A DNA stretch of 32,342 nucleotides from Candidatus Competibacter sp. (lineage in GTDB: Bacteria > Pseudomonadota > Gammaproteobacteria > Competibacterales > Competibacteraceae). The DNA lies in the NCBI GenBank assembly GCA_031732875.1, contig JAVMKL010000101.1, positions 1 to 32,342 on the forward strand. The letters are read 5' to 3'. Positions 14,664 through 30,870 of the stretch are shown in pieces. Under the pieces are notes generated by a model. It was not told where the DNA came from. It searched no databases and was given only the letters and a program-made list of their open reading frames with translations. Each line of letters starts with the position of its first letter. The first letter of the stretch is position 1. The position numbers and the translations under genes are program-made.

Positions 14664-16058
14664 ATGAGTTTCCTGATCGTCATTGGAGCGTTGATCCTGT
14701 TGATGTACGTGGCCTACAAGGGCCATAGCGTGGTGCTGTTCGCGCCTGTCGCCGCCCTGCTGGCGGTGCTGCTGACCGATCCGATTTTGGTTGCGCCGAT
14801 GTATCTCGGCGTGTTCATGGACAAGATGGTCAGCTTCATCAAGCTGTACTTCCCGGTATTCATGCTGGGAGCGGTGTTCGGCAAGGTGGTCGAGTTGTCC
14901 GGCTACTCGAAATCCATCGTGTCGGCGGTGGTCGACGCCATCGGCCACGAGCGGGCAATGCTGTCCATCGTTGTGGTGTGCGCGATCCTTACCTACGGCG
15001 GGGTTTCCCTGTTCGTGGTGGTGTTCGCGGTCTATCCGTTCGCAGCGGAACTGTTCCGGCAGACCCACATCCCGAAACGGCTGATTCCCGGCACGATTGC
15101 ATTAGGGGCGTTCACCTTCACCATGGATTCGCTGCCCGGCACTCCACAGATTCAAAATATCATTCCGACCTCCTTCTTCAACACCACCACCTGGGCCGCC
15201 CCCTGGCTGGGCGTAGTCGGCGGCGTGTTTATCTTCATTGTCGGGATGCTCTATCTCAACTGGCAACGCCGCCGCGCCGAAGTGGCCGGCGAAAGCTACG
15301 GGACCAACCTGATCAACGAGCCGGAACCGTTCACCCACGAAAAGCTGCCCAATCCCATCCTCGCCATCACCCCCCTGCTCCTGGTGGGCATCCTCAATTT
15401 CGCTTTCACCCAACTGGTGCCGATTCTGTACGGCCAAAAATTCGAGCTGACCATGACTGGGATCGGGGCCAAGCCGGTGCCGTTTGAAATCCCCAAGGTT
15501 GCAGCGATCTGGGCGGTGCAAGCGGCGCTGCTGGTGGGCATTCTGTTCGTGGTCATCACCGCCTGGAGGCCGATCAAGGAGAAATTCGCCGAAGGCGCCA
15601 AGTCGGCGGTAGCCGGGTCGCTGCTGGCATCGATGAACACCGCCTCGGAATACGGCTTCGGTGGCGTCATCGCCTCGCTGCCAGGATTCCTGGTGGTGGC
15701 CGATGCGCTACGGGCGATTCCCAACCCGCTGGTCAACGAAGCGATCACCGTCACCACCCTGGCCGGTATCACCGGCTCGGCATCGGGCGGCATGAGCATC
15801 GCCCTCGCTACCATGTCCAACCATTTCATCGAAGTCGCCAAAGCCGCTGACATCCCGCTGGAAGTGCTGCACCGCGTCGCCTCGATGGCCAGCGGTGGCA
15901 TGGACACGCTGCCGCACAACGGCGCGGTCATCACTTTGCTGGCAGTGACCGGTCTGACCCACAAACAGTCCTACAAGGACATCTTCGCGATTACCGTGAT
16001 CAAGACCAGCGCGGTATTCGTGGTGATCGCCTTCTTCTATCTGACCGGCATCTACTGA
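14664..16058 (+). CDS. GntP-family permease (gluconate / short-chain hydroxy-acid:H+ symporter family)
   Basis: 464-aa polytopic membrane protein with GntP-like N-terminal (MSFLIVIGALILLMYVAYKG) and C-terminal (TLPHNGAVITLLAVTGL) blocks. GAGG SD present. Confidence 0.75.
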   Translation: MSFLIVIGALILLMYVAYKGHSVVLFAPVAALLAVLLTDPILVAPMYLGVFMDKMVSFIKLYFPVFMLGAVFGKVVELSGYSKSIVSAVVDAIGHERAMLSIVVVCAILTYGGVSLFVVVFAVYPFAAELFRQTHIPKRLIPGTIALGAFTFTMDSLPGTPQIQNIIPTSFFNTTTWAAPWLGVVGGVFIFIVGMLYLNWQRRRAEVAGESYGTNLINEPEPFTHEKLPNPILAITPLLLVGILNFAFTQLVPILYGQKFELTMTGIGAKPVPFEIPKVAAIWAVQAALLVGILFVVITAWRPIKEKFAEGAKSAVAGSLLASMNTASEYGFGGVIASLPGFLVVADALRAIPNPLVNEAITVTTLAGITGSASGGMSIALATMSNHFIEVAKAADIPLEVLHRVASMASGGMDTLPHNGAVITLLAVTGLTHKQSYKDIFAITVIKTSAVFVVIAFFYLTGIY

Positions 16059-16126
16059 CCTGATCCGTGACGGGGCACGATCCACTTCATCGCGCCCCGT
16101 TCACTACCCAAAGGAGGAACAACGCC

Positions 16127-18139
16127 ATGCAACATCCTCTGCTTGCCTCGCTGCGCATCCCCGAACGCGGCAAGGTCGTCAGTGCCCGCGAGGCCGTCAG
16201 CCTGATCCGTCCCGGCGACGCCGTCGCCACCAGCGGCTTCGTCGGCACCGGTTTCGCCGAAGACATCGCTCGCGCGCTGGAGGAACTCTATCTTGCCCCC
16301 GAGGGCGATCCGAACGCGCCCGGCTTGGAAAAACCGCGTGATTTGACCCTGGTCTACGCCGCCGGCCAAGGCGACGGCAAAGAGCGCGGGCTCAATCATT
16401 TGGGCCACGCGGGACTGGTCAAACGAGTTATTGGCGGCCACTGGGGCCTGGTGCCGAAGCTGCAAGCGCTGGCGGTGGCCGACCAAATCGAAGCTTACAA
16501 CCTGCCGCAGGGCGTGATCACCCATCTGTATCGCGACATCGCTGCCGGCAAGCCGGGCACCCTGACCAAGGTCGGGCTGGGCACGTTCGTCGATCCGCGT
16601 TACGGCGGCGGCAAGCTCAACGCCATCACCCAGGACGATTTGGTCGAACTGATGGTGATCGGCGGTCACGAATATCTGCTTTACAAGGCGTTCCCGATCA
16701 ATGTCGGCATCATCCGGGCCACCACCGCCGACATCGACGGCAACCTGACCATGGAAAAGGAGGCCCTGACCCTGGAGTCGCTGGCGATCGCCACCGCGGT
16801 CCGCAATTCGGGTGGCATCGTCATCGCCCAGGTGGAGCGGGTGGCCGAGCGCGGTTTCATGCGACCCAAGGACGTGCGGGTACCGGGAATCCTGGTGGAT
16901 TGCATCGTGGTCGCGCCGCCGGAACACCATTGGCAGACTTTCGCCACCCCGTACAACCCGGCCTTTTCCGGTGAAATCAAGATACCGCTGGCCTCGATTC
17001 CGCCGATCCCGATGAGCGAGCGCAAGATCATCGCTCGCCGGGCGGCGCTGGAACTGACGCCCAACGCCATCGTGAATCTGGGCATCGGCATGCCGGAGAG
17101 CGTGGCGAACGTCGCCGCCGAGGAAAAGATCATCGATCTGCTCACCCTGACCGCCGAACCGGGGGTGGTGGGCGGCATTCCAGCCGGCGGGCTGGACTTC
17201 GGCGCGTCCACCAACGTGCAGGCCATCATCGACCAGCCGAACCAGTTCGATTTCTACGACGGTGGCGGCCTGGACATCGCGGTGCTGGGCATGGCCGAGG
17301 TGGATCGGTACGGCAATCTCAACGTCTCGAAATTCGGGCCCAGGATCGCCGGCGCCGGCGGATTCATCAATATCAGTCAGAATTCCCGGAAAGTGGTATT
17401 CGCCGGGACCTTCACCGCCGGCGGTCTGGACATCGCGGTGGAACAGGGCCAACTGTGCATCCGGCGCGAAGGGAAAACCGCCAAGTTCGTCGAGACGGTC
17501 GAGCAACGAACCTTCAGCGGCGAGGTCGCCAGTCGTCACAAGCAGCCGGTGCTTTATGTCACCGAGCGGGCGGTGTTCAGGCTGACGGTGGAGGGACCGG
17601 AATTGATCGAGATCGCCCCGGGCATCGATCTGGAACGCGACGTACTGGCCCACATGAAGTTCCAGCCCCGCGTCAGCGCCCAACTGCGGCGGATGGATGC
17701 CCGCATCTTTGGCGAGGAACCCATGGGGCTGCGCGATATCCTGCTGGCGCAACCGCTGGAGCAACGGCTGTCCTACGATCCGGTCAAGAATCTGTTTTTC
17801 CTGAACTTCGAATGGTTGACGGTGCGCAGTCGCGAGGATATCGAAAACATCCGGGCAGCGGTCAGCGGCAAGCTGGAACCGCTGGGCAAGAAAGTGTTCG
17901 CCATCGTCAATTACGACAATTTTTCGATCAGCCCGGAACTGTTGCGGGAATACATGGACATGGTGAGCGAAGTGGTGCAGCGTTATTACATCGGCGTGAC
18001 CCGCTATACCACCAGCGCGTTCCTGCGGGCCCGGCTGGGCGACGCCCTCCGGGAACGCGACCTGGCGCCCCAGATTTACGAAACCGCCGCCGAAGCAGCG
18101 TCGCGGCTCAATCCCTCGCAAGACCTTAACAACCCCTGA
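16127..18139 (+). CDS. Family I CoA-transferase (fused alpha/beta, acetate/propionate CoA-transferase-like)
   Basis: 670 aa, with N- and C-terminal 3-oxoacid CoA-transferase-like halves ([10 protein letters not shown]...GGHWGLVP...; [12 protein letters not shown]...GGLDFGAS...[10 protein letters not shown]). AAGGAGG SD lies 9 nt upstream of ATG 16127. Confidence 0.8.
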
Positions 18140-18217
18140 AACTCCGCAACGGGCCGACGTCTCGACTCAGGATGCCGGCCCATGAAACTTCCCGTACTCC
18201 GATAGAGGATACGCAAC

Positions 18218-18409
18218 ATGAACACCACCACCCCGAATCTCGATGCCGCCCTGGCCGAACTCGACCGCGCGCGCGAACTGTTGATCTTATTGCTGAAACT
18301 GGACAACGCGACCGAGTTGAGCGAGGAAGACACCGTGCTTCACACCCTGAGCGACCATATCAACGCCGCTTATGCTCTGTTGGCGGAAACGACCGGCCGA
18401 CCCGAATAA
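18218..18409 (+). CDS. Small hypothetical protein (63 aa, predicted helical)
   Basis: AGAGGA SD lies 8 nt upstream of the ATG. GC3-rich codon usage is consistent with coding. No family recognised. Confidence 0.4.
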   Translation: MNTTTPNLDAALAELDRARELLILLLKLDNATELSEEDTVLHTLSDHINAAYALLAETTGRPE

Positions 18410-18533
18410 AGCCGGTATCCACGCTGCGCCATTCTCCCCGCTCCGCGGCCCGTCGGCCTGGGGGGGCGGCTCTCTGGATCGGCGTGGGTTCTCCAGTTGA
18501 AGGGTCGAGGCCGGCGCAGCGCGCGGGCCGGCA

Positions 18534-20360
18534 TTACAACGGCAGCAGCAACGGCACCACCAGCAGGGTGATGGCCATTACCACCAGGATCAGCGGCAGC
18601 CCCACCCGCACGAAGTCGTTGAACCGGTAGCCGCCCGGGGCCAGCACCAGGGTGTTGACCGGCGAGGACACCGGGGTGGCGAAGGCCGCCGAGGCCGCCA
18701 CCGCCACGGTCATGGCGAAGGGGTAGGGCGAGACGCCGATCTTCTGGGCGGCGGCGATGGCGACCGGCGCCATCAGCACCGCCGTGGCGGTGTTGGAAAT
18801 GAACATGCCGACCAGCGCTGCCAGCAGGAAAATCCCGGCCAGCAGCGCCAGGGGGCCGAATCCGCCGAGTGCGGCCGCCAGCCCGTCGGCGATCAGGGTC
18901 ACGCCGCCGGTTTGTTCCAGCGCCCTGGCCAGCGGCAACATGCCGGCGATCACCACCAGGCTGGGCCAATTGATCGACCGGTAGGCATCCTCCAGCCGCA
19001 GGCAGCGGAACAGGCCCATGGCCAGCGCCGCCAGCAGCGCCGCCGCAGTGTTGGGGACCAGGCCGAAGGTCATCGCGACCACCATCGCCAGCAGGACCAG
19101 CAGCGCGAACGGCGCCCGCCGGTAGGCCGGGGCCACCTCACCGAATTCCGCCGGCAGGCCCAGCACCAGGAAATGCCGGCGGTCGCCCTGGAGCCGGCCG
19201 ATCTGTTTCCAGGAACCGGCGACCAGCAGCACGTCGCCGAAGGCCAGCTTTTCCTCGATCAGGTTGCCCGGCAGCGAGCGACCGCGGCGGCGGATGCCCA
19301 GTACGCTCAGGCCGTGGCGGCTGCGGAACGCCGCCTGGCGCAGGGTCTGGCCGACCAGTTCCGAATCCGGCGGCAGCAGCACCTCGACCATGCCCAGTTC
19401 CTTGACCAGATTGCGCTGCCGGCCTTCCTCGATCGGCAACGGGGTCAGCCGTTCGGCCGCGCCGAGGGTCTCCACCGCCTGGGTCGAACCGACCAGGTAG
19501 ACGACATCGGCGGGGCGCAGATCGGTGGTGGCCAGCGCCGGAACCACCTTGTCGCCGAACGGCCGCTGGCGCTCGACCCCGGCGATGGTGACACCGTAAC
19601 GGCTGCGGAGCGCAGCTTCCGCCACGGTCCGGCCGGCCAGGGACGAATCCGGCTCGACCCGCAGCCGGTGCAACTGGCCAAGCAGGTCGTAGCTTTCGCC
19701 CAGTTCCCGCAACGTCTGCCGGCGGCCCGCGGTTCCCGTCGGCGGCGGACTGGCCGGCAGCAGTCGGGAACCGACGGCCCACATGTAGGCAATTCCCAAC
19801 CCCAGCGCCAGCAGACCGATGGGGGTGATGCTCAAAAAGCCGAAGGGTTGCAGGCCGGCGGTGCGCAGGGCGTCGTTCACCATCAGGTTGGGCGGGGTGG
19901 CGATCAGGGTCAACATCCCGCTGAGCAGGGCGGCAAAAGCCAGCGGCATCATCAGCCGGCCCGGACCGATGCCGAGCCGGTTGATGATGCCCAGCACCAC
20001 CGGGATGAAGATCGCCACCACCCCGGTGGAACTCATGAACGCGCCCAGCCCAGCCACCGCCAGCATCAGCAGCACCAGCAACCGGGTTTCGCTGGCGCCG
20101 GCCACCCGGGTCAGCCAGTTGCCGACCTGGTTGGCGACGCCGGTTCGCACCAGACCCTCGCCGACTACGAACAACGCGGCGATCAGGACCACGATGGAAT
20201 CGCCGAAGCCGGCCACCGCCTCAGCCACCGGCAGGATGCCGCCCAGGATCAGGGCCACGATCACCAGCAGGGCCACCACGTCCGGCCGCAGCCGGTCGGT
20301 GGCGAACAGCACGACGGCGGCGGCCAGCACGCCGAAAACGAATAGAGCATCGGGAGTCAT
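18534..20360 (-). CDS. SLC13/DASS-family permease with tandem cytoplasmic TrkA-C (RCK_C) domains
   Basis: N- and C-terminal transporter repeats flank two TrkA-C-like segments (RVEPDSSLAGRTVAEAALRSRYGVTIAGV / LLPPDSELVGQTLRQAAFRSRHGLSVLGI). Start MTPDALFVF at 20360 has a GAGGTGA SD. Confidence 0.85.
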   Translation of the reverse strand: MTPDALFVFGVLAAAVVLFATDRLRPDVVALLVIVALILGGILPVAEAVAGFGDSIVVLIAALFVVGEGLVRTGVANQVGNWLTRVAGASETRLLVLLMLAVAGLGAFMSSTGVVAIFIPVVLGIINRLGIGPGRLMMPLAFAALLSGMLTLIATPPNLMVNDALRTAGLQPFGFLSITPIGLLALGLGIAYMWAVGSRLLPASPPPTGTAGRRQTLRELGESYDLLGQLHRLRVEPDSSLAGRTVAEAALRSRYGVTIAGVERQRPFGDKVVPALATTDLRPADVVYLVGSTQAVETLGAAERLTPLPIEEGRQRNLVKELGMVEVLLPPDSELVGQTLRQAAFRSRHGLSVLGIRRRGRSLPGNLIEEKLAFGDVLLVAGSWKQIGRLQGDRRHFLVLGLPAEFGEVAPAYRRAPFALLVLLAMVVAMTFGLVPNTAAALLAALAMGLFRCLRLEDAYRSINWPSLVVIAGMLPLARALEQTGGVTLIADGLAAALGGFGPLALLAGIFLLAALVGMFISNTATAVLMAPVAIAAAQKIGVSPYPFAMTVAVAASAAFATPVSSPVNTLVLAPGGYRFNDFVRVGLPLILVVMAITLLVVPLLLPL

Positions 20361-20367
20361 GAACGCT

Positions 20368-22329
20368 TCACCTCGGCCAGCCATCGCTGGAGTGTCGCCA
20401 ATCTTCAGGGCCACCGGCAAAACCGCCGGCGAGTTGCCGGTTCAGGGCGAGCAGCCGCCGCAAAATTTCAGCGTCTGGCATGGCCGGCTGGTAGTCGTCC
20501 CAACCATACGCCGCCGCCACGGCCGCATCCAGTTGCCGATGGGCCTGATCCAGCCAGGCCGGACGGGCGTTGTAGAGATTGGTCAAGGTGCGCCGGTTCA
20601 GTTCGGCGGCGAATTCCGGTTTGGGAAGCAGTCGGTCGGGATAGCCGGGAACGATTTCGGGAACCCGCTCCACCCATTCCGGCGGATTGAGCCAGTTTTG
20701 CCGCAGCGCGTTCAAGCGGCGCGCGGCTTCGGCGATGGCGGGGAACTGAGGCCCCTCGCCCGCTTGCGGGAGAGGGGTTGGGGTGAGGGCGTTTCGATTC
20801 GGCTGCAAACCAGGGGGAAACGGAAACGTCTCGAAGCAGGTGGCGGCGTTGTAGGTCGGGTCATTTCCAACGCCGTGCCGGCTGGCGTTGGCCAGCGCCC
20901 AGACTTCGTGAATGCGGGAATGCAGAATGCCGCAGGTCGCGTCGTCGTCGCGGGCGATCACGTACAGGCGGCTGTCGGGCAGCACGGCCGAATACAGCCA
21001 GACAAACAGCCGGTGCTTGGCGACGCGGGGCGTGGCGATGTAGCGCGGGACCCGAGCCAGCGCCTTCCGCATACCCGGCATGACCTCGCCATGCCGCCAC
21101 CAATATCTGGCGCGCAACGCCCGCCGGTTCCGTTCCCGTTCCGGCTTCACATGGGCCAGCACATAGGCGAACGGCGCTTCGTACAGCGCTGCCTCGGCCT
21201 CGGACAGTTCGCCGCCGAAGTCGATGATCCAGGTATCGGACGGGCGGCGGGTGATATCCATGCCGTTGGCCCAGGGGCGCAGGACATCACCGTTCGGCCT
21301 GCCGTGAGGGTTGGGTTGTTGAAGCCACTGGCGGGCCAGTTCGCCGGGAATGTCGAAAGCGCCGACTTTGACCGGCCCCTGAAAGCAGGTAGCTATGTTT
21401 TCGCGGAGCCTCACGGCCCTGGTTAAATCGGTTTCACCGGCGGTCAGGTCGGCGTTGACGGTGGCGACGGGGTGGCCGTCGAGTGAAATTCCCCCGGCTT
21501 CGCCACTCCCAAAACATACCAGCGACACCCGCACCGCCGCGCCGTCGTTGATCCAGGGTTCGTCCGACCAGGCGTTGAAGATGCGCGCCTTCACCTCCAG
21601 CCCCTGCGGAGGGAGGGGGGTATTGAGGATGCGTTCCAGCACGGTTCGATTGGCGCCCTTGCGGATGGCCTGCGTCGCCACCAGCCCGGCCCGTTGCGCC
21701 TTCCCCGCCTCAAGCTGCGCCCGCGCCTTCTCGAACCAGTAGCACACCAAATCCGCCCCGCCCGGCACCCGCCCGTCGTAATGGGCGACTTGGCGCGGAT
21801 CGTGGCCCCGCCGCTCCAGCGATCCGGCCAAGTCGGCGAACCGCCCCGCCGCCGCCAGGGTGATGTCGCGGTCGGTGCGGCGGGGGCGGAACTGCGCGGG
21901 GTGATCGAACACCGCGCGCAGCTTGGCGAGGTTCTCCGGCCGGCCGATCTCCTCCAGCCGGATGACGTGGGCTTCCGAGGGCGTGCCGGTGAAATGGGTG
22001 TGAATCTCGATGGTCCGCCGGTCGCAAACCACCAGCAGCGGCGGGTTGTCCAGGGCCAGGGCGTAGGTCATCAACTGCTTGAGCGCCTCGCCCAGATGGC
22101 CGCCCGGGGCCTTGTTCTCCCAGGCGAAACAGCCGCGCTTCCACACATCCGCCCAGCCACGCCCGGCCCCGGTGCGCGCCGCCCCGCGCTCGAAACAATA
22201 GTTCTCCGGGTCGCCGGGCTTGGCGACCCCCAGAATCTCGCAGAGATCGAGAAAGAACGGCTGAGCGCCGGCCCGCTCGCTCAGCGGATTGTCGCGCCAC
22301 AGGGCGATGAATTCAGCGGGAGTTCGCAA
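20368..22329 (-). CDS. MmeI-family (type IIL restriction-modification) homologue that retains the N-terminal PD-(D/E)xK nuclease domain and the C-terminal TRD/C-domain but lacks the methyltransferase catalytic core
   Basis: N-terminus aligns with MmeI (AQPFFLDLCEILGV ~ AKPFLIDFFEVFGI; GWADVWKRGCFAWENK...LLVVCDRRTIEIHT ~ GFVDLFWPGILLIEMK...YVLVCDFQRFRLT, with the D...ExK motif). The C-terminus also aligns (ARIFNAWSDEPW ~ AHRTFSWTNEAS; LTNLYNARPAWLDQAHRQLDAAVAAAYGW ~ LAGLYDPKTMPSELLKAHQKLDKAVDSVYGF). No FxGxG or NPPF/Y motifs are present, and the protein is ~270 aa shorter than MmeI. The only possible start is TTG 22329. Confidence 0.7.
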   Translation of the reverse strand: MRTPAEFIALWRDNPLSERAGAQPFFLDLCEILGVAKPGDPENYCFERGAARTGAGRGWADVWKRGCFAWENKAPGGHLGEALKQLMTYALALDNPPLLVVCDRRTIEIHTHFTGTPSEAHVIRLEEIGRPENLAKLRAVFDHPAQFRPRRTDRDITLAAAGRFADLAGSLERRGHDPRQVAHYDGRVPGGADLVCYWFEKARAQLEAGKAQRAGLVATQAIRKGANRTVLERILNTPLPPQGLEVKARIFNAWSDEPWINDGAAVRVSLVCFGSGEAGGISLDGHPVATVNADLTAGETDLTRAVRLRENIATCFQGPVKVGAFDIPGELARQWLQQPNPHGRPNGDVLRPWANGMDITRRPSDTWIIDFGGELSEAEAALYEAPFAYVLAHVKPERERNRRALRARYWWRHGEVMPGMRKALARVPRYIATPRVAKHRLFVWLYSAVLPDSRLYVIARDDDATCGILHSRIHEVWALANASRHGVGNDPTYNAATCFETFPFPPGLQPNRNALTPTPLPQAGEGPQFPAIAEAARRLNALRQNWLNPPEWVERVPEIVPGYPDRLLPKPEFAAELNRRTLTNLYNARPAWLDQAHRQLDAAVAAAYGWDDYQPAMPDAEILRRLLALNRQLAGGFAGGPEDWRHSSDGWPR

Positions 22330-22483
22330 GGCGGTTCACTGATCGGGTCGGGGATGGCGGCCATCGATGGCGATCATATCAAAACTGAGATTTCCGACGC
22401 GGCGAAGGTGGCTACAGGATGCGTTGGAGAAGACGGGGCCGGTCGTGCCGGTGGCGGAGCGGAAGAGGCCGGAGGAACCCGCT

Positions 22484-22825
22484 ATGCTTTCCAGCATGTC
22501 CGAGTTGAATGTGCCAGCGCCGCCGGTGTCTGATGCTTATGAAATCGCCAAGGCGGGCGGCAAGCATTCTAATTGGTACAAACAGCAGCTTGGTTTGCCT
22601 TCTTCGATATTGGAGCGCGCCATCAAGTCGTTCCAGTTGCTCGTTGGGAGGCATGAATCATGGATTCAAAATCCAACAGCAGAATATCCCGATTTCCATC
22701 AGTGGGATCCGCGGCGGCAACGAAATTTGATCGAACATCATTGGCCAGCGGACATAGCGCGTCATCGGGATTTCATTCGCATCCTCGAAGGAATTTTAAA
22801 GGAGCGCGGTTATGGCAACCAGTGA
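22484..22825 (+). CDS. Hypothetical protein (113 aa); first gene of an overlapping two-gene module; locally low GC
   Basis: GGAGGA SD lies 7 nt upstream of ATG 22484. The region is visibly AT-richer than its flanks. No family recognised. Confidence 0.45.
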   Translation: MLSSMSELNVPAPPVSDAYEIAKAGGKHSNWYKQQLGLPSSILERAIKSFQLLVGRHESWIQNPTAEYPDFHQWDPRRQRNLIEHHWPADIARHRDFIRILEGILKERGYGNQ

Positions 22826-23033
22826 TCGTTACGCGACTATTTTGATATCAGTATTGGAACTGGCCAAGCAAATCGGACAGGAACAGGCCGATGCCGATGC
22901 GGCGGAAGCGTGTTATCGGCTTTTGGAAGAGGCCGCCGCCCAAGCTGAAGTATGGGAAGTCCCGTTAGCCGAAATCGGTTTGGCCGGCTTCGATCCGGCT
23001 TCGCTGTTGAGCGCACCCCGCAAAGCCGCCTGA
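22812..23033 (+). CDS. Hypothetical protein (73 aa, acidic/helical); overlaps the upstream gene by 14 nt
   Basis: ATGGCAACCAGTGA overlap joins the two ORFs, which suggests translational coupling typical of toxin-antitoxin-like pairs. Confidence 0.4.
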   Translation: MATSDRYATILISVLELAKQIGQEQADADAAEACYRLLEEAAAQAEVWEVPLAEIGLAGFDPASLLSAPRKAA

Positions 23034-23049
23034 CCCGTCGCATCAATCT

Positions 23050-23077
23050 CTCCCGCATCGTCGATGACGAGCGGGAG
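23050..23077. terminator. 28-nt near-perfect nested palindrome (ctcccgc-a-tcgtc-gat-gacga-gcgggag) between convergent genes; possible bidirectional terminator or binding site
   Basis: The palindrome is read directly from the sequence. No U-tract follows, so it is not a canonical intrinsic terminator. Confidence 0.35.
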
Positions 23078-23111
23078 CGACGCCTTCATTCATTCCAGGC
23101 ACGTGATCGGC

Positions 23112-23951
23112 TCATGGTGGCGGAGGATTTACCCGCTCCTCCGCCCCCGCTTCGAGCCACCCCAGCACCTCGTCCCACCAGGCGGCGCGCGGATCCACCG
23201 GCCAACTGTTGTGGCCCGCGCCCGCGAAGACCCAGCGCCGCTTCGGTTCCCGCAGCGCGTCGTACAGGCGCTGGCTGTGGCGCGCCGGGATGATCTCGTC
23301 CCGTTCGGCCACCAGCACTGCGATCCTGCCGCCATACTGGTTCAGAGAGGCGATGTTGTCGTAGCGGTCGCGCAGCAGCCAGCGGGCCGGCAGATACCAG
23401 TACAGGGTTTGCGCCAGATCGGACAGACGATCCCACGGCGTGATCAGCACCACCCCGGCCACCGGCAGCGCGGAGTCGGTCGCCACGCCCGCCGCCACCG
23501 CCGCTCCCAGCGACTCGCCCCAGACCAGCAGGGGACCGCCGAACGCCGCCAGCGCCCGCCGGGCAGTCTCCCGACCATCGCTGATGAAGGAGTCTTCGCC
23601 CAGCTCACCACCCCGCCCGCCATAACCCGGATATTCCGCGAGCACCACGCGATAACCGCGGGCTTCCAGGGCCAGCCAATAATAAAACCGGTCGCGGGCG
23701 CCGCCAGCGTTGCCGTGAAACACGACCACCGTTCCCCGAACTGGCGAACCCTCACGCAGGCCCGCGCCGGCGTAGCCCCGAAATTCCGCGCCACCGGCCG
23801 GCCAGGGTTCGAGGGTCATCCCGCTCGCCAGACGCACGGTGGCGATAGCGGGCGGCGCGGGATCGGGAAAGTACAGCATGCGCCGCTGGACCACAAAGAC
23901 GAATCCGACCAGCAACAGGTAGCCGATCACGAGATACAGCAGGATCCGCAT
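23112..23951 (-). CDS. Alpha/beta-hydrolase fold protein with an N-terminal membrane anchor
   Basis: GESLG nucleophile elbow (GxSxG), and a His near the C-terminus (GAGHNSW). N-terminal helix MRILLYLVIGYLLLVGFVFVV. GGAGA SD lies 6 nt upstream of ATG 23951. Confidence 0.75.
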   Translation of the reverse strand: MRILLYLVIGYLLLVGFVFVVQRRMLYFPDPAPPAIATVRLASGMTLEPWPAGGAEFRGYAGAGLREGSPVRGTVVVFHGNAGGARDRFYYWLALEARGYRVVLAEYPGYGGRGGELGEDSFISDGRETARRALAAFGGPLLVWGESLGAAVAAGVATDSALPVAGVVLITPWDRLSDLAQTLYWYLPARWLLRDRYDNIASLNQYGGRIAVLVAERDEIIPARHSQRLYDALREPKRRWVFAGAGHNSWPVDPRAAWWDEVLGWLEAGAEERVNPPPP

Positions 23952-23985
23952 CGGATTTCTCCGTTGGCAACCATTCACCGCCCGG

Positions 23986-24885
23986 CTAATACGCCGAGTT
24001 CAGCAGGTTCGAGGGAGAGTACTGGTCGGTGAGGATGCGCGCTCCTGGATCCCAGTCGCGCTCGGTCGAAAACAGCGGCACGAGCCAGTCGCCGCCAAAA
24101 CCGAATGGTTTCAGCTTCTCCTCGAGCGAATCGGCGTTCCGCTTGATGATGTCGAGAGCGGGAAGTCCGTCCATTCTGGTCAGGACGATGCGATTTTTCA
24201 GCTTCAGCCTGAGATTGTAGAAGGTCCCGAACACGGATTCGTAGGTCGTCGATTCGTGGGGGTAAAGACGGCTGCTTGAGAACGTATTGGCCACCAGAAC
24301 TCCATCCGCCGTCAACAGGGTCTTGACTTCGAGCAGAAACTCCCGGGTCAGCAGATGTTCCGGAATGTACTCGTGATCGAAGGCATCCAACATGACCAGA
24401 TCGTATCGTTGACCGGACTTGCCCGCACGCTTCACGAAAACCCGCCCGTCCTCCTCGAAAACCCGGACCCGCTGGCTCGGGTTAAAGTCGAAGAATTGTT
24501 GGGCGACTCTGATCACCGCCGGATCGATTTCCACGACATCGATCTCGGCATCCGGAAACATCCCGGCCAGCGCCGTCGGCAAGACGCCTCCCCCCAGTCC
24601 GACGATCAGGACTTTCCTGGGATTGGGATTCAAATACAGCGCGCCCATCATCATCTTCGTATAGCTGAAGACGAACTGGTTCGGATCGTCCAGGGAGCGG
24701 CAGGTTTGCCGGGCGGTTTGATTGCGCCGGGTGAAACTCATGCATCGCTGGTCGTCCTCTTCGTAAACGACGATATTCCGGTAAAGCGACTTTTCGGTGT
24801 GAACGATGGTCATTGCGGCGGATGGCTGGGTCACGAGCGAAGCGACAAAAGCGATCAGCGTATTGAGCCTATTGGCTTGGCGCAT
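23986..24885 (-). CDS. Spermidine-synthase-like (polyamine aminopropyltransferase-fold) protein
   Basis: TEKSLYRNIVVYEED...VLIVGLGGGVLPT...YDLVMLDAFD motifs of the spermidine synthase family. Candidate starts are ATG 24885 (MRQANRL, a hydrophobic leader), ATG 24813 and TTG 24912. Confidence 0.7.
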   Translation of the reverse strand: MRQANRLNTLIAFVASLVTQPSAAMTIVHTEKSLYRNIVVYEEDDQRCMSFTRRNQTARQTCRSLDDPNQFVFSYTKMMMGALYLNPNPRKVLIVGLGGGVLPTALAGMFPDAEIDVVEIDPAVIRVAQQFFDFNPSQRVRVFEEDGRVFVKRAGKSGQRYDLVMLDAFDHEYIPEHLLTREFLLEVKTLLTADGVLVANTFSSSRLYPHESTTYESVFGTFYNLRLKLKNRIVLTRMDGLPALDIIKRNADSLEEKLKPFGFGGDWLVPLFSTERDWDPGARILTDQYSPSNLLNSAY

Positions 24886-25552
24886 CGGTGGAATTTCCGA
24901 ACAGGATGGCAAGAAAACCCAAAATCAGCGAAATGCCGATCAGGCCGGCCAGAATCTGGTCGATCTCGAAATAGAGAACGAGATAGAACGACGTCAGGAT
25001 GGTTCCCACCGCGCTGCCGAAAGTCGAGAAAAAATAAAGCAGCCCCGCCAACTGGCCGCTCCGCTGGGATTCGTTCACCAGCAGGCGGACGGCATAGGGT
25101 GATACCATTCCGGCTATGGTGGTCGGAACGAAGAAGAGCAGGGTGGCCGATATCAGGGAACCGTAACGGGGATCCTGAACCAGGTCGAAGATCCAGTCGA
25201 GGACTGGATTGCCCAGCAGAATCACCGGGATGGTGGTCAGCGCCCCGGCAATCGAGATGAACGCCAGCCGGCGCAAGGTCGGGTCATACAACGACAATCG
25301 GCCGCCCAGGAGATAGCCGACCGACAGCGCCAGCATGAAAACCGTGATCACCCCTCCCCAGACATAGATGCTGTTGCCAAAATTCGGCGCGAGAATGCGC
25401 CCGCTCAACAGTTCGATCGCCATCACGAAAAACCCGGACCATCCAGCGATCAACAAGACGAAAAGGCGGCGCAAAGTCGAGTCCTCGCAACGGTTCGGGC
25501 CGCGCGCGCCGGCATCGCCGACGGCTTGGCGAGATGCTGGTGAGACTATCAT
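24869..25552 (-). CDS. Polytopic membrane protein resembling the N-terminal transmembrane domain of fused membrane spermidine-synthase-like proteins
   Basis: Six or seven hydrophobic helices. It overlaps the downstream SpeE-like ORF by 17-44 nt in a different frame, so the pair may be one gene with a frameshift (see findings). Confidence 0.6.
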   Translation of the reverse strand: MIVSPASRQAVGDAGARGPNRCEDSTLRRLFVLLIAGWSGFFVMAIELLSGRILAPNFGNSIYVWGGVITVFMLALSVGYLLGGRLSLYDPTLRRLAFISIAGALTTIPVILLGNPVLDWIFDLVQDPRYGSLISATLLFFVPTTIAGMVSPYAVRLLVNESQRSGQLAGLLYFFSTFGSAVGTILTSFYLVLYFEIDQILAGLIGISLILGFLAILFGNSTDAPSQ

Positions 25553-25561
25553 GCAAAGTCG

Positions 25562-25588
25562 AAAAAAGCCCGGCCTTGCGGCCGGGCT
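25562..25588 (-). terminator. Rho-independent terminator (copy 1) belonging to the duplicated SPFH 3' segment
   Basis: On the minus strand: agcccggcc-gcaa-ggccgggct followed by tttttt. Confidence 0.7.
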
Positions 25589-25603
25589 CCGGTTTGACGG
25601 CGC

Positions 25604-25823
25604 TCAATGCGCCGGCAGGTCAATGCGCACCGTGTCGCGCAACACGCTATCCAGGCCGCCGAACACGGTCAGCCGTTCGACCTTATCCACGACCTTCTCC
25701 AGCGCTTCCAGTTCCTTGAGCCGCAGCAGCAGGGGGTTCTCTTCCATGAGCTTCGCCGTGTTGAGCAGCGAGCGGGTGGCGGCGATTTCCTCGCGGCGGC
25801 GAATGATGTTGGCCTGCGCCACC
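25604..25823 (-). pseudogene. Orphan 3' fragment of an SPFH/band-7 gene (encodes ...VAQANIIRRREEIAATRSLLNTAKLMEENPLLLRLKELEALEKVVDKVERLTVFGGLDSVLRDTVRIDLPAH*)
   Basis: Matches the last 73 aa of the intact gene at 29722..30870 with a few substitutions. The N-terminal codons of the track ORF come from the insertion. Confidence 0.8.
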
Positions 25824-25852
25824 CTCGCGGAAAAAATCCACAAATATGGAAT

Positions 25853-28762
25853 TCAGTCTTTTTCAGTATGGCTGATGACTTTTTCAACTTGAATATCATT
25901 TATTCCAAAATCGTCCTGAATTTTAGTCTGTTTCTGTTTTCTACAAACTCTGCGAGAGAATATGAAACCCTTGGGGCACAATTCTATCTGTGGCAATATT
26001 CGTTCTTTGTTAGGATTTTCACAAAATTCATCGATATCTTTCTCCTGTGAAATGAGAAATTTAAGAAAATTAACTCCCTTATATTTGCAGGTTATATAGA
26101 GACTTAAAAGGATAAGATAAGAATTTAGGCCAGATTCTGAAATCTGATAATCAACAACCTCTCGATAATAAGCAAATTCCTTAATGGCGTGTTCCGCATT
26201 GTTATTATTCCATGGTACGCCATCATGATTAATAAACGTAAATAGTTTATCCTGATACTTCACCAATCTTTTACGGTAGTCTTCAGTCACTTCAGAACGG
26301 TAAATCTTCCCCGAGATATTTTTGAAGAATTGATTAACATCCCGTTTATGCTTTCCAAGGTATTTTTTCTGGAGTCCATAATTGTCAATAGTGTCGATGA
26401 TATTGCGTAGTAATTTACCAAAATCGGATGCGAGTTTTTTAAGTTCTTCATCCCATGAATTAGCCTGTATATCATTATTAAAGTCCCTGATAAGGTGGAT
26501 TAAACACTTTTGCTGTTCACATGGAAGAGCGTCATAAGGCGCGTAAAAATCAGAAATTAATACACCTCGAAAATCTTTTAGCATATTATTTAGAAAGCTT
26601 CCCTCTCGTGATTTCCTGTAGATATATAAGACTTCTTCCATATTTGTGAAGACCCACACATACTCTTTGCCATCACGCGTGAGATGAACCTCCGTCTCGT
26701 CCACATGGATAAAAGTACCACCTATCATCTTGGCCAGAATTTGCTTGGAAGTTTCCTCATAATATTGGGATAGTAACTGCTTAAATGTGAATACATCAAC
26801 TGTGGATACAGGTAACCCAAAATAGTCATTAAACCTCTTTGCGATTTTTGAAAAACTAGATCGACATGCCACATATTCATACATGGCCCAGCTTTTCAGG
26901 GAATGGAAATACTCGTCCGAACGAAGATATTCTTCGGGTAAGAACCGCTTGCCACATGTCAAACAGCAATGCCGAGTAGTCGTAAACCGTATTACCCATC
27001 TGCTGATACCACTTTGCGTGATTTGAAGGTTTCGAGCTAAGCGAACTAACCGCCTATCCATCTGCCGAGTTATCTCTGTCCCTCTACAGCTAGGGCATTT
27101 TTGGCTACTGATTTCAATGGTATTATTTGCCAAAATATCTTTTTTGCCCTGCCTACTGTGTCTTTTAGATCTCTTTTTCTTTAGAGCCTCGTTTGTTCGA
27201 ATAAAGATTTTATCTCTTTGATAATCGAAGTATGCGCATTTGTTGATAATCCTGAAATCAGGGATAGTGAACTCTGTCCGGCCCCAGTCTGGACGGCTAG
27301 AATCTGGACTCATCTCTCCTACTTGCGATACAGGGTAACCTTCGTGGGTTATGGTCTTGGGTTGCGTCGCCGAAGTTTGCTTCGGGCAGATGGCATAAAG
27401 GAACTCTGTTACCTTCTTCAATGCAGCACAGTCTTCCAAATTGTATGTTGCGAGCATTTCTTTGAGTGCCTGCGAACCAGTTTGCTCCCACTTATTTCGC
27501 CACACAATGCTCTGTATGCCTGAAGCATCGGCTTCAGTCCAGTTAAAACCCAGATAGCCACCGATATGCTTCAAGCCATTGGAATATGTAGGGAAATAGA
27601 TATGCGAATAAATGATTGAGAGAATGTTGACAACACGAGCAAGGATCTTGTCGCCAACCTCCTGTTGGCCCAAATCTTTTATCATTCGTCGCAAGAATAT
27701 TGCCTCATAACTACCATAAGCGTAGAGGTAAAAGTCGTCGAGACGATTCACTACATCGAGAAATTTCTGGAACAGATGGAATTCCTCAGTTTGGCTGTCT
27801 ACCCAAAATGAGTGATGCTCTTCCGCTCCATTCCTCACGATAATCATACCAAGCAGGTATATATATCTGCGTTCCGGGTCACCTTCGAGATCTAAATAGA
27901 TTTGTGTTGATGGATGTGGCAGTTCGGGTGTACCAAGCACGTAGATCTTCTTATTTCGAATAGCCAACGCCTGTAAAGCATGATTGTGTGGTTGACTTTT
28001 TTGCTTTGATCGCGTATTTCTTTTTTGTGGGCGGAAGATACAGGATAGTTGAGTGACAGTGAGGATTCCTCTCTTATTGTATTTTCGGATTTCCTTTTGA
28101 CTCAATCCTTGTAGCAAACTGAGGTCATCCTTTGCTGTCGCATTAACATGGCACCGTTGGCAGAACTCGCAAATTTGGCAGTGTCGGTTAAGCATTAATA
28201 CTGGAGCTACACCACTCTCTTGGATTTCCTTAATTTCTTGTAGTGCTCGTCGTGCGCTTTTATCGCCAGAATCCAGCTTGAATTTTGTGGTATTGCATTC
28301 GCGGCCATGGATCAAAATCCCAACCTGTGGTTGCCTTCCTTGGGTATCGCCGAGGATGCAGCCATGCATTGCAAGCAAGATTTTATGTTGTCTGTTGAGT
28401 TTTTCTGCCTCGTGGAATAATACGGGAATGTAGTGAAATTCTCCTAGTCGTGATGGGCCAACTTCTTTCTGGAGAGAATCAAAGTGGACTGCAATCCTCT
28501 GATCTTCTAGAATCACGTCTGAGAGTAATGATATCCCCCGTTTTAGTGTCGCAAGTGTTAGGGTGACACCATGTGCGGTATCGACTTCTTGGTATCGAGT
28601 TACAAGTTTATGCGTGGCCGCTTGTCGTACATGGTTTCTGGTCTCTTTCTGCAATAATTCATAGGGTGATACGTTACCTTGTTCACGAATCAGCTTCAGG
28701 TATCCTTTGTATTTGCAGTTCAAGTAGCTCTCTAGAATTTCCCCGGTGATCTTCGTGTCCAT
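25853..28762 (-). CDS. 969-aa fusion protein: N-terminal TM0106-family RecB/Cas4-like nuclease plus RNase-H-like (YprB-type 3'-5' exonuclease) domains, fused to a C-terminal IS66-family transposase (zinc ribbon + DDE domain)
   Basis: N-terminus ITGEILESYLNCKYKGYL plus HCQICEFCQRC Cys cluster (Cas4-like). IYLDLEGDPERRYIYLLGMII ... YGSYEAIFL ... NLEDCAAL form an RNase_H_2 / DEDD-like exonuclease triad. CPSCRG...CLTCGKRF is the IS66 zinc finger. FIHVDETEV ... YVWVF ... RGVLISDFYAPYD ... CLIHLIRDF ... NNNAEHAIKEF is an IS66 DDE transposase core. GGAGGTAAGCT SD precedes ATG 28762. Confidence 0.8.
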   Translation of the reverse strand: MDTKITGEILESYLNCKYKGYLKLIREQGNVSPYELLQKETRNHVRQAATHKLVTRYQEVDTAHGVTLTLATLKRGISLLSDVILEDQRIAVHFDSLQKEVGPSRLGEFHYIPVLFHEAEKLNRQHKILLAMHGCILGDTQGRQPQVGILIHGRECNTTKFKLDSGDKSARRALQEIKEIQESGVAPVLMLNRHCQICEFCQRCHVNATAKDDLSLLQGLSQKEIRKYNKRGILTVTQLSCIFRPQKRNTRSKQKSQPHNHALQALAIRNKKIYVLGTPELPHPSTQIYLDLEGDPERRYIYLLGMIIVRNGAEEHHSFWVDSQTEEFHLFQKFLDVVNRLDDFYLYAYGSYEAIFLRRMIKDLGQQEVGDKILARVVNILSIIYSHIYFPTYSNGLKHIGGYLGFNWTEADASGIQSIVWRNKWEQTGSQALKEMLATYNLEDCAALKKVTEFLYAICPKQTSATQPKTITHEGYPVSQVGEMSPDSSRPDWGRTEFTIPDFRIINKCAYFDYQRDKIFIRTNEALKKKRSKRHSRQGKKDILANNTIEISSQKCPSCRGTEITRQMDRRLVRLARNLQITQSGISRWVIRFTTTRHCCLTCGKRFLPEEYLRSDEYFHSLKSWAMYEYVACRSSFSKIAKRFNDYFGLPVSTVDVFTFKQLLSQYYEETSKQILAKMIGGTFIHVDETEVHLTRDGKEYVWVFTNMEEVLYIYRKSREGSFLNNMLKDFRGVLISDFYAPYDALPCEQQKCLIHLIRDFNNDIQANSWDEELKKLASDFGKLLRNIIDTIDNYGLQKKYLGKHKRDVNQFFKNISGKIYRSEVTEDYRKRLVKYQDKLFTFINHDGVPWNNNNAEHAIKEFAYYREVVDYQISESGLNSYLILLSLYITCKYKGVNFLKFLISQEKDIDEFCENPNKERILPQIELCPKGFIFSRRVCRKQKQTKIQDDFGINDIQVEKVISHTEKD

Positions 28763-28939
28763 AGCTTACCTCCAAGGATGAAGTTTCCATTAGCAGATCC
28801 ACGCACATCAGATACTGCACCACTCGACCCCGGTCAGTCACGATGCGTTCCAGTTTCGCTGCCGACAGGCTAATAGGATTGGGCCGGAAGGTGGAACGAG
28901 TCGCGAATACGTCCAGCCGCCCGAGTCGATCCGGGCTGG

Positions 28940-29679
28940 CGTGGAACCCCGAATTATCGCGGAAGCAGCCTCAATGACTTACCGGCTAAAGCCGGTAGGT
29001 TGTTAGAGGCGTAAACGCCCGTTCAGACTCAAGTCAGTTCGGGTTGCGGATGAATCTGCCTGAAGCTCATTCCGCCAGCGCCGGTGACTCGTCCCAGACT
29101 TGGAAGGCACCCGATCCGTCCTCTTGCTCTTCGATATAGCGCTTAACTTGTTCTTCCGTCACTCTGCCCCCACCGTCACGCAGAAATACCCCCTCCCCCA
29201 CAGGTATTGGCTCCAATACCGCTTCTGCAACTCCCGAAATTCCCGCTGCAACCGATAGGAGGATTTACCCTTGAGGTATTGCAGCATCTTTGCCGGCGAC
29301 AGATACGTCGGCGCACTCACCAAGAGATGGACATGATTGGGGCGAATATTTCCCTGTATGACTACCATATCGTGTTCCGCAGCGATCATCCGCAGCAAAT
29401 CCCGGAGCCGGAGCCCGATCTCCCCGCGCAACACTGGATACCCGTACTTCGTCTTCCATACCATGTGGTACTTCAGGTCTGTAACCGTGTGGGCACCACG
29501 CCGATACCGCGCTCGATCTACCATCCGCTGTTCCCGCTCAAGCTGTAGCCCTTGACGAAGGGCGCGTGCTAAAGACGTTTCCGCCTAAAGGCGAAGGTTT
29601 ATATCCTATTGTTTGGAAATCAAACGATGCTGATCGGCGTCAAGCTAAATATTGGCGGAATTTCGGTGGACAGTGGTAC
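28940..29679 (-). mobile_element. IS200-like (IS200/IS605 family) element, ~0.74 kb, with TAAA-loop subterminal hairpins on both sides of tnpA
   Basis: tnpA is flanked by short hairpins cgcc-taaa-ggcg (29581-29592), gccctt-gacg-aagggc (29547-29562), ccggc-taaa-gccgg (28981-28994) and ggcg-taaa-cgcc (29007-29018). The size matches IS200. The left boundary is approximate. Confidence 0.5.
29068..29524 (-). pseudogene. tnpA: IS200/IS605-family Y1 (HuH) transposase tnpA, frameshifted near the 3' end
   Basis: TDLKYHMVWKTKYGYPVL ... HVHLLVSAP (HuH) ... YLKGKSSYRLQ ... RGYFCVTVGAE*. The conserved C-terminus VTEEQVKRYIEEQE continues in another frame immediately after the stop (gcaGAGtgacggaagaa), extending to TGA at 29068. 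Confidence 0.75.
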
Positions 29680-29706
29680 AAAAAAGCCCGGCCTTGCGGC
29701 CGGGCT
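29680..29706 (-). terminator. Rho-independent terminator of the intact SPFH gene (repeat copy 2)
   Basis: On the minus strand: agcccggcc-gcaa-ggccgggct followed by tttttt. The IS200-like LE begins immediately 3' of the T-run. Confidence 0.7.
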
Positions 29707-29941
29707 CCGGTTTGACGGCGCTCAATGCGCCGGCAGGTCAATGCGCACCGTATCGCGCAACACGCCATCCAGGCCACCGAACACGGTCAGCCGTTCGACC
29801 TTGTCGACCACCTTCTCCAGCGCCTCCAGTTCCTTGAGCCGCAGCAGCAGGGGGTTCTCCTCCATCAGCTTCGCCGTGTTGAGCAGCGAGCGGGTGGCGG
29901 CGGTTTCCTCGCGCCGGCGGATGACGTTGGCCTGCGCCACC
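29680..29941. repeat. Direct repeat copy 2 (262 bp) = native 3' end of the SPFH gene plus terminator
   Basis: See copy 1 (25562..25823). Confidence 0.8.
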
Positions 29942-30870
29942 TTCTCCGCCTGCACGACCTGGTTGAGAATGTCCTTCATCTCGCCCGGCAGGATCACGTC
30001 CTTCAAGCCGACCGTCTCCAGTTCCAGACCGTGCGGGCGAACCTTCTCGACCGCGTAGTCCCACACGGCCCGATCCAGTTCGTCCTTGTCGCCGAGCAGC
30101 ACGTCCAGGGTGCGGGTACCGATGGTCTGGCGCAGACCGAACTGCAAGGTCCGGTACAGGTAGTCGCCGCTGTTGCCCAGTTCGGCGCGAGCCTTCACCG
30201 GATCGGCGATCCGGTAGACCGCCGACAGGTTCACCCGCAGGCTGACCTTGTCCTTGGTCAGGATTTCCTGGCCGGAGACCTCCAGGGTCTGCAAGCGCAG
30301 GTCCACCGACTCTACCTTCACCGCCCGGTTGAACCGCCAGAAGGCGTGCAGGCCGGGCGACAGGGTACGGACCAGCTCGCCGTCCACCAGCAACAGACCG
30401 ATGTGGTTGTCCTCCACCTCGGCGACCTGAATGAAACCGGTCACATTCTTGACCAGGGTCGCCGACGGCCGCGCCAGCAGGGCCGCGTGCGCCCGCGACA
30501 GGGCGTAATCGGTGGCGATGTTGATCGACTCGACGCGAACCTCCACCGGACCCCGCCAGTAGACCCGACGGGTCGCGGGGGGCAACACGCCATCCAGACG
30601 ACCGTTCTTGTAGATCAGGCCAACCTGCCGGTCGCCGGTCTCGACGACCTGAAAATGGCGCTCGATCAGCTCCTGGTCGGTCTTCAACAGCACGTCCAGC
30701 CAGGGGTGCTCGAACTCGGCCACGGTTAGATCGTACCGCTGCACCTCGTGGCGGTTCAGAGGATCGAGCCAACGGTAAATACCCGGTTCCAGAATGGCCG
30801 CCAGCCGGCGGTCGTACAGGTGGAGCCCACGCTCGTTCTGGGCGATCACGATTCGCTTGTAACCCAACAT
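29722..30870 (-). CDS. SPFH/band-7 (stomatin/slipin-like) domain protein, apparently soluble (no N-terminal TM helix)
   Basis: The C-terminal half carries the SPFH core and coiled-coil (RTLQFGLRQTIGTRTLDVLLGDKDELD...ILPGEMKDILNQVVQAEKVAQANVIRRREE...). Start MLGYKRIVIA at 30870 has an AAGGAG SD. The upstream part of the 443-aa track ORF lacks a start signal. Confidence 0.75.
   Translation of the reverse strand: MLGYKRIVIAQNERGLHLYDRRLAAILEPGIYRWLDPLNRHEVQRYDLTVAEFEHPWLDVLLKTDQELIERHFQVVETGDRQVGLIYKNGRLDGVLPPATRRVYWRGPVEVRVESINIATDYALSRAHAALLARPSATLVKNVTGFIQVAEVEDNHIGLLLVDGELVRTLSPGLHAFWRFNRAVKVESVDLRLQTLEVSGQEILTKDKVSLRVNLSAVYRIADPVKARAELGNSGDYLYRTLQFGLRQTIGTRTLDVLLGDKDELDRAVWDYAVEKVRPHGLELETVGLKDVILPGEMKDILNQVVQAEKVAQANVIRRREETAATRSLLNTAKLMEENPLLLRLKELEALEKVVDKVERLTVFGGLDGVLRDTVRIDLPAH

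Follow-up and report, generated by a model that had tools for sequence, protein, structure and literature searches.

Insertion sequences (IS) of the canonical IS66 group carry tnpA and tnpB upstream of tnpC, end in terminal inverted repeats (TIRs) of about 15-30 bp and leave an 8-bp target-site duplication (TSD). The ISBst12 group, with a single open reading frame (ORF), also does without tnpA and tnpB. TM0106 proteins (COG2251, TIGR03491) stand alone, have no assigned function and consist of a four-cysteine Cas4-like domain followed by a DEDD-type RNase_H_2 domain. Here we describe a gene in which the two are joined, located on contig JAVMKL010000101.1 of Candidatus Competibacter sp. (assembly GCA_031732875.1), of which the whole stretch of 32,342 nucleotides that was analysed is called the window. 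The C-terminal 430 amino acids (aa) of its product align nearly end to end with the IS66 transposase models, including the zinc finger, the DDE residues and the C-x2-H block, and within IS66 the single-ORF ISBst12 group is the nearest comparison. Unlike IS66, however, the protein begins with a 455-aa TM0106 module and a linker, the element has neither such TIRs nor an 8-bp TSD, tnpA and tnpB are missing, and long repeats of gene ends accompany about a quarter of the loci; unlike stand-alone TM0106 proteins, the module is joined to a transposase. A table from 2012 lists four 'IS66' genes of Solibacter usitatus with both pfam03050 and COG2251 (PMC3469429). We found no published study of the fusion family, and two superfamily surveys cover COG2251/PF13482 without the fusion. 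In our preferred reading, to which we give an even chance, the ORF is the sole gene of a mobile element of about 3 kb, belonging to an IS66-derived family in which the TM0106 module replaces the usual N-terminus.

An earlier note, made from the letters of the window alone, had described a single 969-aa ORF with a TM0106-type N-terminal half and an IS66-type C-terminal half. The ORF is indeed present, and its parts are as follows.

25853..28762, minus strand: fusion gene, 969 aa, ATG start; TM0106 module, linker, zinc finger, IS66 DDE core and variable C-terminal tail
28118..28762, minus strand: Cas4-like PD-(D/E)xK domain, aa 1-215; C16, C195, C198, C204 and D95 invariant
27398..27901, minus strand: RNase_H_2 (DnaQ/PolB-exo-like) 3'-5' exonuclease domain, aa 288-455; D291, E293, Y440, N441 and D444 invariant
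27128..27397, minus strand: fusion-specific linker, aa 456-545; partly conserved (F503, D513-Y514-Q515, R522), with a low predicted local distance difference test score (pLDDT)
26048..27127, minus strand: zinc finger and IS66 DDE core, aa 546-905; the CxxC...CxxC motif is C556, C559, C600 and C603

Both halves were recognised by profile models. TIGR03491 (TM0106 family) matched aa 6-455 over model positions 2-462 of 462, with 255 bits against a cutoff of 97.45, and the YprB/RNase_H_2-type exonuclease was confirmed by PF13482 (aa 288-455, E 2e-24). PF03050 (DDE_Tnp_IS66) matched aa 624-870 with an E value of 6e-27 and 95 bits (gathering score 23.1). NF033517 (transpos_IS66) covered aa 531-903 and model positions 3-380 of 387, and its 173 bits, slightly below the 180-bit equivalog cutoff, are a further difference from IS66. 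Invariance was judged in an alignment of 29 homologues with 50-89% identity. The cysteine set, D95 and the exonuclease, zinc-finger, DDE (D688-E689, D738, E857) and C-x2-H (C753-x2-H756) residues were invariant in 29/29 sequences. The catalytic residues of all three modules are conserved, and the fusion is real.

The earlier note had seen a CxxCxxCxxC cluster in the Cas4-like domain. A four-cysteine Cas4-type set is present, but the conserved pattern is a different one: family-wide it consists of C16 and C195-x2-C198-x5-C204, and C201 was found only in the closest relatives. The PADLOC Cas4 model matched aa 3-205 (E 2.5e-7), and Pfam Cas_Cas4 gave a weak score of 17.9 bits, below its gathering score of 22.7. 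The expected ExK site reads P-V-L-F-H-E-x-E-(K/R), where H117 is invariant and E118 and E120 occur in at least 80% of the sequences. An AlphaFold (AF2) model built from the 29 homologues reached a mean pLDDT of 72, with confident domains. Foldseek searches with this model retrieved the ISCth4 transposase of the IS256 family (E 1e-8), the Cas4 of a Cas4-Cas1-Cas2 complex (E 4e-4) and the DnaQ domain of Streptococcus thermophilus (8h18). Searches of PDB sequences with full-length and N-terminal profiles gave no match. The AT-rich island noticed earlier was also borne out, as GC content is 0.37-0.47 along the gene and 0.56-0.71 in the rest of the window (overall, 0.41 for the gene vs 0.61 for the host).

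The earlier note knew of no IS66 transposase with such an N-terminal extension, but the fusion occurs in many places outside this window. The full-length protein search proposed in the earlier note, applied to 5.8 billion proteins, revealed wide recurrence: in NCBI, JGI, ENA and Logan data there are more than 120 clusters that are full-length (about 950-980 aa, 900-1000 aa overall) and 50-89% identical, all of which carry PF13482 and PF03050. In a scan of one genome per species, at least 536 loci were confirmed among the 600 pattern matches listed, distributed over Planctomycetota, Acidobacteriota, Proteobacteria, Nitrospirota, Cyanobacteria and Omnitrophota. Metagenome contigs added at least 596 further loci, again among 600 matches listed. 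The genome scan also yielded loci in a metagenome-assembled genome (MAG) of the Parcubacteria group (candidate phyla radiation) and in archaeal MAGs. Members are named either 'TM0106 family RecB-like putative nuclease' (by the annotation pipeline PGAP) or 'transposase IS66'. The fusion family is large, visible in the databases and apparently uncharacterised. Related loci are designated here by L-numbers. The family genes of a bacterial Gemmataceae MAG (L005) and of an archaeal Nitrososphaerales MAG (L006/L108) are 82% identical at the DNA level, which reflects either inter-domain transfer or a binning error.

The earlier note had itself raised the possibility that a sequencing frameshift makes two genes appear as one ORF; an assembly frameshift would have the same effect. 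A query with aa 460-560, which lie mostly outside both models (TIGR03491 stops at aa 455 and NF033517 begins at aa 531), returned at least 450 clusters at 50% identity, and the full-length hits match at the same position. The conserved linker and the more than 120 independent clusters with both halves practically rule out such an artefact. Moreover, the same ORF is present at this locus in three independent assemblies, and no point in favour of an artefact was found.

To define what moves, near-identical pairs were sought among 160 related loci. Six pairs were 92-98.5% identical, with sharp boundaries and unrelated flanks. For four of them, the common part extends beyond the ORF as follows.

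L053/L138, 98.5% identity: 86 bp upstream, 126 bp downstream
L069/L159, 96% identity: about 180 bp upstream, 0 bp downstream
L059/L148, 95.5% identity: 30 bp upstream, 90 bp downstream
L156/L167, 92.6% identity: 61 bp upstream; the common part stops inside the ORF tail

The window core and that of L180, which is 86% identical in nucleotides and lies in another context, have only the region from -13 (ribosome-binding site, RBS) to 36 bp past the stop codon in common. Near-identical copies in unrelated contexts hence define a mobile core of roughly RBS, ORF and 0-126 bp, and in several lineages just 0-8 bp of the conserved unit are kept past the stop codon. Apart from a lineage-specific hairpin and the heptamer CGG(G/T)TCG in two lineages, no conserved motif was found past the stop codon across the loci. 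This heptamer stands at the sharp right ends of L053/L138 and of L156/L167/L076, and the left ends of three lineages open with short palindromes (CATCCC...GGGTG, GCCCA...TGGGC and CGCTG...CAGCG).

Gene GC content tracks that of the host (r = 0.86) and is on average 4.7 points lower; the window copy is the extreme, with a value 20 points lower. The earlier note had suggested a new IS66-derived mobile element. Mobility is supported by the presence and absence of the gene among Competibacter genomes (see below), by the near-identical copies in unrelated contexts and by the GC content 20 points below that of the host. As for the rest of that suggestion, the architecture was already in the databases, and TIRs, an 8-bp TSD and tnpA/tnpB are missing.

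The earlier note had proposed a search for intact copies with TIRs and TSDs; neither was found. We compared flank against flank by BLAST in 140 loci and in control intervals, equally sized and taken in the same loci, and inspected the sharp ends. Inverted repeats in the flanks did not exceed the control rate (2/44 loci vs 1/55 controls; 2/62 vs 2/86), and the boundaries of the near-identical pairs had neither inverted repeats nor a short target duplication. Clustering of the neighbours of 80 loci yielded no recurrent accessory gene and no tnpA or tnpB, which are also missing from the window. These results bear on the idea that the ORF belongs to an ordinary, ISBst12-like IS66 insertion sequence, which has acquired an extra N-terminal domain and retains TIRs and an 8-bp duplication. 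The nearly end-to-end fit of the C-terminal half to IS66 models, the invariant DDE and CxxH blocks and the label 'transposase IS66' in some databases agree with it. Given inverted repeats no commoner than in controls, six sharply bounded pairs of cores without TIRs or TSDs, the 0-8 bp left past the stop codon in several lineages and the missing tnpA/tnpB, we regard it as very improbable. The fusion element is unlike canonical IS66 because it has no TIRs and no 8-bp duplication; judged by its sequence, it is a compact, promoterless, single-gene mobile unit without the structural hallmarks of IS66. Its transposition would then not follow the canonical IS66 route.

In the window, the fusion gene is inserted just past the 3' end of a slipin gene and is flanked by two copies of that gene end. 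The neighbouring slipin protein, with 382 aa, marks the host as Candidatus Competibacter.

25827..25852, minus strand: 26-bp tail 3' of the fusion stop codon, kept in L180; right end of the conserved core
25562..25826, minus strand: direct-repeat copy 'down', a slipin fragment with the last 74 codons, stop codon and terminator; it runs into native downstream DNA
29680..29944, minus strand: direct-repeat copy 'up', formed by the terminal part (3' end with terminator) of the intact slipin gene
29722..30870, minus strand: slipin/SPFH (Band_7) host target gene; homologues have 382 aa, and the mechanical ORF extends to 31053

The 'down' copy begins 26 bp past the fusion stop codon. The two 265-bp copies are 95% identical, with 14 differences, 10 of which fall on third codon positions. 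Compared with the slipin gene of L089, they show 16 and 31 differences at an expectation of 24 ± 5, and either copy may be the native one. The tail contains a hairpin (GTGGA-TTTTT-TCCGC, 25827-25841), the arm of which reads TCC(G/A)C across the window and L180. The tail ends about 3 bases before the similarity between the window and L180 stops, and the core end and the slipin sequence both contain the junction triplet AGG (about 25824-25826).

Among the Competibacter relatives, the same insertion was found in L001 (92% identity) and L092 (GCA_031732855.1, 96-98% identity). In L089, L090 and L093-L097 there is no insertion, and the slipin terminator adjoins that of pntB, at the equivalent of window position 10737. 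Therefore, the whole of 10738-29673 (18.9 kb) is variable. Its genes encode CBS, LysR, a CoA transferase, a CitMHS transporter, an MmeI_N fragment, a hydrolase and a SpeE-like protein, and no recombinase was found in it. L098 has no fusion gene, and the gene directly after slipin is the SpeE-like one, which in the window is found on the far side of the fragment. As the insertion is common to two other Competibacter assemblies at 92-98% identity, it is older than their split. Of the 'recent horizontal origin' proposed earlier, the foreign composition therefore stands, and the recency does not. On the other side of slipin, just upstream of it, L092 has a TIR_2-domain gene and a radical-SAM gene (2086-4686), a possible defence pair, and L089 has a DUF6946 gene at this site; both sides of slipin are thus variable.

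Flanking direct repeats are not confined to the window. Within 2.5-kb flanks they were detected at 11/44 loci compared with 1/55 control intervals, and within 1.5-kb flanks at 10/62 compared with 4/86 (Fisher p = 0.024). When the flanks were extended to 6 kb, such repeats were found in two independent sets, at about 20 of 70 genome loci and at 12 of 59 metagenome loci. Their length ranges from 35 to 690 bp and the identity of the copies from 70 to 97%, with 100% in L092. In most repeat-positive loci, the pair nearest the gene encloses 2.85-4.9 kb, i.e., the gene and at most a small cargo, such as a Gp49 toxin, a PIN gene or a Schlafen/AlbA gene. Coding repeats cover the 3' ends of genes for slipin, comM/yifB, SpoVR and a DUF4344 peptidase. 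An assembly chimera of strain variants is unlikely as their source because repeats are also present in long-read MAGs (L063, L067, L069, L074) and three assemblies agree on the window structure. In the genome set, the longest identical block of the repeats seemed to have a fixed polarity, which was not replicated in the metagenome set. Of the six tRNA genes located a few kb or less from family loci, five encode tRNA-Arg (L029, L039, L042, L052, L064), and in L029 the flanking repeat overlaps the 5' end of the tRNA.

The differences between the two copies of a repeat cluster at one codon phase: 2/2/10 in the window, 3/24/2 in L012, 5/0/21 in L054, 55/27/11 in L038 and 45/39/90 in L170. A decaying fragment should change at all positions, and at no less than the synonymous rate of the intact copy; therefore, the periodic differences arose in working genes. 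This pattern points to copies that diverged within working genes and were brought together later, i.e., to a copy of the target that the element brought along. It is the mark of elements with a target version of their own, as in the case of prophage e14 and icd.

Alternatively, the element could be self-mobile and the long repeats true target duplications that diverged later, produced by two strand transfers or cleavages that are not coupled and lie tens to hundreds of bp from each other, as in target-primed long interspersed nuclear elements (LINEs). The 265 bp are 100% identical between the L092 copies, repeat length varies widely (35-690 bp), several repeats of the metagenome set have no codon periodicity, and AGG/AAGG microhomology exists at the right junction of the window, all of which would fit such duplications. 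They do not account for the concentration of differences at third codon positions in L012, L054, L038, L170 and the window. In L012, the per-site rate of evolution of the constrained copy would need to be about 8 times that of the neutral copy, and filler DNA lies between repeat and core. We therefore consider a long target duplication unlikely.

A further explanation regards the gene as a passenger or as a domesticated nuclease-transposase that acts in defence, repair or addiction. It would reside in variable islets for whose movement other recombinases or general homologous recombination are responsible, and the repeats would be the att sites of these islets. Low copy number and ameliorated GC content are in line with this, and neighbours are often toxin-antitoxin or Schlafen-type genes. 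Toxin-antitoxin genes (Gp49/HigB-like, PIN, VapC) adjoin family genes in L054, L002 and L182. The last of these is the Acaryochloris marina plasmid pREC4, in which a small tyrosine recombinase of 199 aa is encoded 600 bp downstream of the family gene. The tRNA-Arg genes near several loci, the lack of direct contact between the repeats and the sharply defined core, and the position of the window gene at the edge of the 18.9-kb variable region likewise agree with a passenger. On the other hand, neighbour clustering at 80 loci revealed no second gene that recurs with the family, and repeat-bounded units of 2.85-3.2 kb have room for this gene only. The many different target genes would require many different helper recombinases. 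Further, the DDE, zinc-finger and exonuclease residues are all invariant, and near-identical cores occur in unrelated contexts. No support was found for the domesticated or defence role that the earlier note had offered as an alternative, as the sole PADLOC match is the Cas4-like domain. Taken together, a passenger or domesticated gene is rather unlikely, although it is the strongest competitor of the self-mobile, single-gene element.

Several observations weigh against the preferred reading of a self-mobile element. No biochemical evidence was found for any family member. The canonical RecB motif III, (D/E)xK, is not evident in the Cas4-like domain, where D95, H117 and E118 are conserved. We found no conserved terminal sequence that the transposase could recognise. 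Flanking repeats are detectable in only 16-29% of loci, and several of them show no codon periodicity. The identity of the L092 copies may mean that the 5% divergence in the window stems from later allelic replacement rather than from carry-over. A gap separates repeat and core, 38-255 bp wide at the left end and 0-55 bp at the right, and its DNA is not part of near-identical cores elsewhere; the repeats may thus stem from a larger unit or a separate event. Low copy number per genome and a GC content that tracks the host would fit a long-resident or domesticated gene. Finally, L005, L017, L030, L039 and L083 contain divergent family genes, two or three in a row, head to tail and in one orientation, with gaps of 42-300 bp (at most 870 bp), and such tandem arrays of paralogues are not explained by the element model.

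Between the tandem genes of L039 (7888-16166), no repeated spacers (att copies) were found. In L083, a 33-codon N-terminal A-type fragment (871-1026) lies directly upstream of a B-type gene and overlaps its start, and a complete A-type gene follows 262 bp downstream. It looks as if one element had entered the 5' end of another.

The DNA between the fusion gene and the 'up' repeat copy comprises the following features.

28763..28968, minus strand: non-coding DNA upstream of the fusion gene; the 268-bp stretch consists of this part and 29618-29679
29618..29679, minus strand: remainder of this 268-bp stretch, adjoining the slipin terminator
28969..29617, minus strand: nested IS200/IS605-type element of 649 bp with tnpA at 29159..29524 (121 aa, Y1_Tnp) and subterminal hairpins

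The IS200/IS605-type element is missing from the otherwise same insertions in L001 and L092 and is separate from the fusion element. The 268-bp stretch is common to L001 and L092 and is not found in L180 or L002 except for its last 13 bp (RBS); searches for its origin gave no match elsewhere. In L092, the same stretch contains an insert of about 115 bp (about 7222-7335) that resembles a miniature inverted-repeat transposable element (MITE), with the inverted ends AGCGCTCCTATC / GATAGGAACGCT. Small mobile elements seem to be drawn to this short non-coding stretch. Neither Rfam families nor a promoter were found in the AT-rich island. The window has no CRISPR array. No cas genes were found among the Pfam-scanned ORFs (window positions of about 10.9-31 kb), and none recur beside 80 related loci. 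The only genes that the window repeats enclose are the fusion gene and the tnpA of the nested IS200 element; a tyrosine or serine recombinase is not among them.

If the gene is indeed the sole gene of a mobile element, the fusion protein would mobilise its own gene. The DDE core would perform strand breakage and joining, and the Cas4-like nuclease and the DEDD exonuclease would process the DNA ends. This processing could consist of second-strand cleavage, as by TnsA in Tn7, or of trimming or resection, as by Cas4 and DnaQ ahead of integration by Cas1. At gene ends, integration might involve recombination or joining between a travelling, target-derived segment and the resident gene in an att-like or Campbell-like manner, which would leave an intact gene and a displaced or xenologous fragment. 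The target-derived segment may serve as an att site or as a homology arm, or may be a mere by-product. Expression probably depends on read-through or on a promoter formed at the junction because the conserved core has no promoter of its own.

More specifically, in elements without fixed ends the carried target DNA could act as a homology arm that guides integration into the same gene of a new host. The Cas4-like 5'-3' nuclease and the DEDD 3'-5' exonuclease would then expose or trim strands for pairing and joining. This proposal is doubtful; if true, it would mean DNA-homology-guided, re-programmable transposition by a single protein.

Should the family consist of self-mobile elements, it would be an offshoot of IS66 with a different integration chemistry, characterised by the lack of inverted repeats and of a short duplication and by gene-end targets that are restored by a carried copy. 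One polypeptide would unite a transposase with two end-processing nucleases, which would widen the known ways in which DDE enzymes choose and process DNA. It would be a natural parallel to the cooperation of Cas4/DnaQ with Cas1 and of TnsA with TnsB, and possibly a single-protein integration tool. Thousands of database entries now named 'RecB-like nuclease' or 'IS66 transposase' would deserve one consistent name.

Beyond IS66 and TM0106, the element can be compared with four kinds of systems. Like IS110/IS1111 and IS200/IS605, it is compact and has neither TIRs nor a fixed target duplication. Unlike these, which use DEDD + Ser or HUH enzymes, its catalytic protein is unrelated, and the fusion element has no conserved non-coding end of the size of a guide RNA and no Rfam matches. 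With prespacer trimming by Cas4 or DnaQ-Cas2 alongside Cas1, and with casposons, it shares the coupling of an iron-sulfur (Fe-S) PD-(D/E)xK nuclease and a DEDD exonuclease to an integrase. In contrast to Cas4-Cas1 systems, this integrase is a DDE enzyme, the window has no CRISPR array, and Pfam Cas_Cas4 stays below its gathering score.

Integrase islands that carry a surrogate gene end (e14 in icd, islands in tRNA genes) resemble the fusion loci in their insertion at the 3' end, in the imperfect direct repeat of the gene end with mostly synonymous differences, and in the intact gene and fragment left behind. Unlike such islands, the sole gene here is a DDE-nuclease fusion, with no tyrosine or serine recombinase in the unit and none recurring in related loci, and closely related fusion proteins (79-98% identity) are found at unrelated targets. 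In the case of Tn7, the nuclease turns replicative transposition into cut-and-paste. No Tn7-type ends or TnsB sites, 5-bp duplication, TnsC or target selectors were found for the fusion family, which, unlike Tn7, relies on a single polypeptide with an extra exonuclease. As with TnsA and TnsB, a restriction-type nuclease is combined with a DDE transposase, and insertion occurs just past the 3' end of conserved genes; this resemblance to Tn7 is one of functional analogy only.

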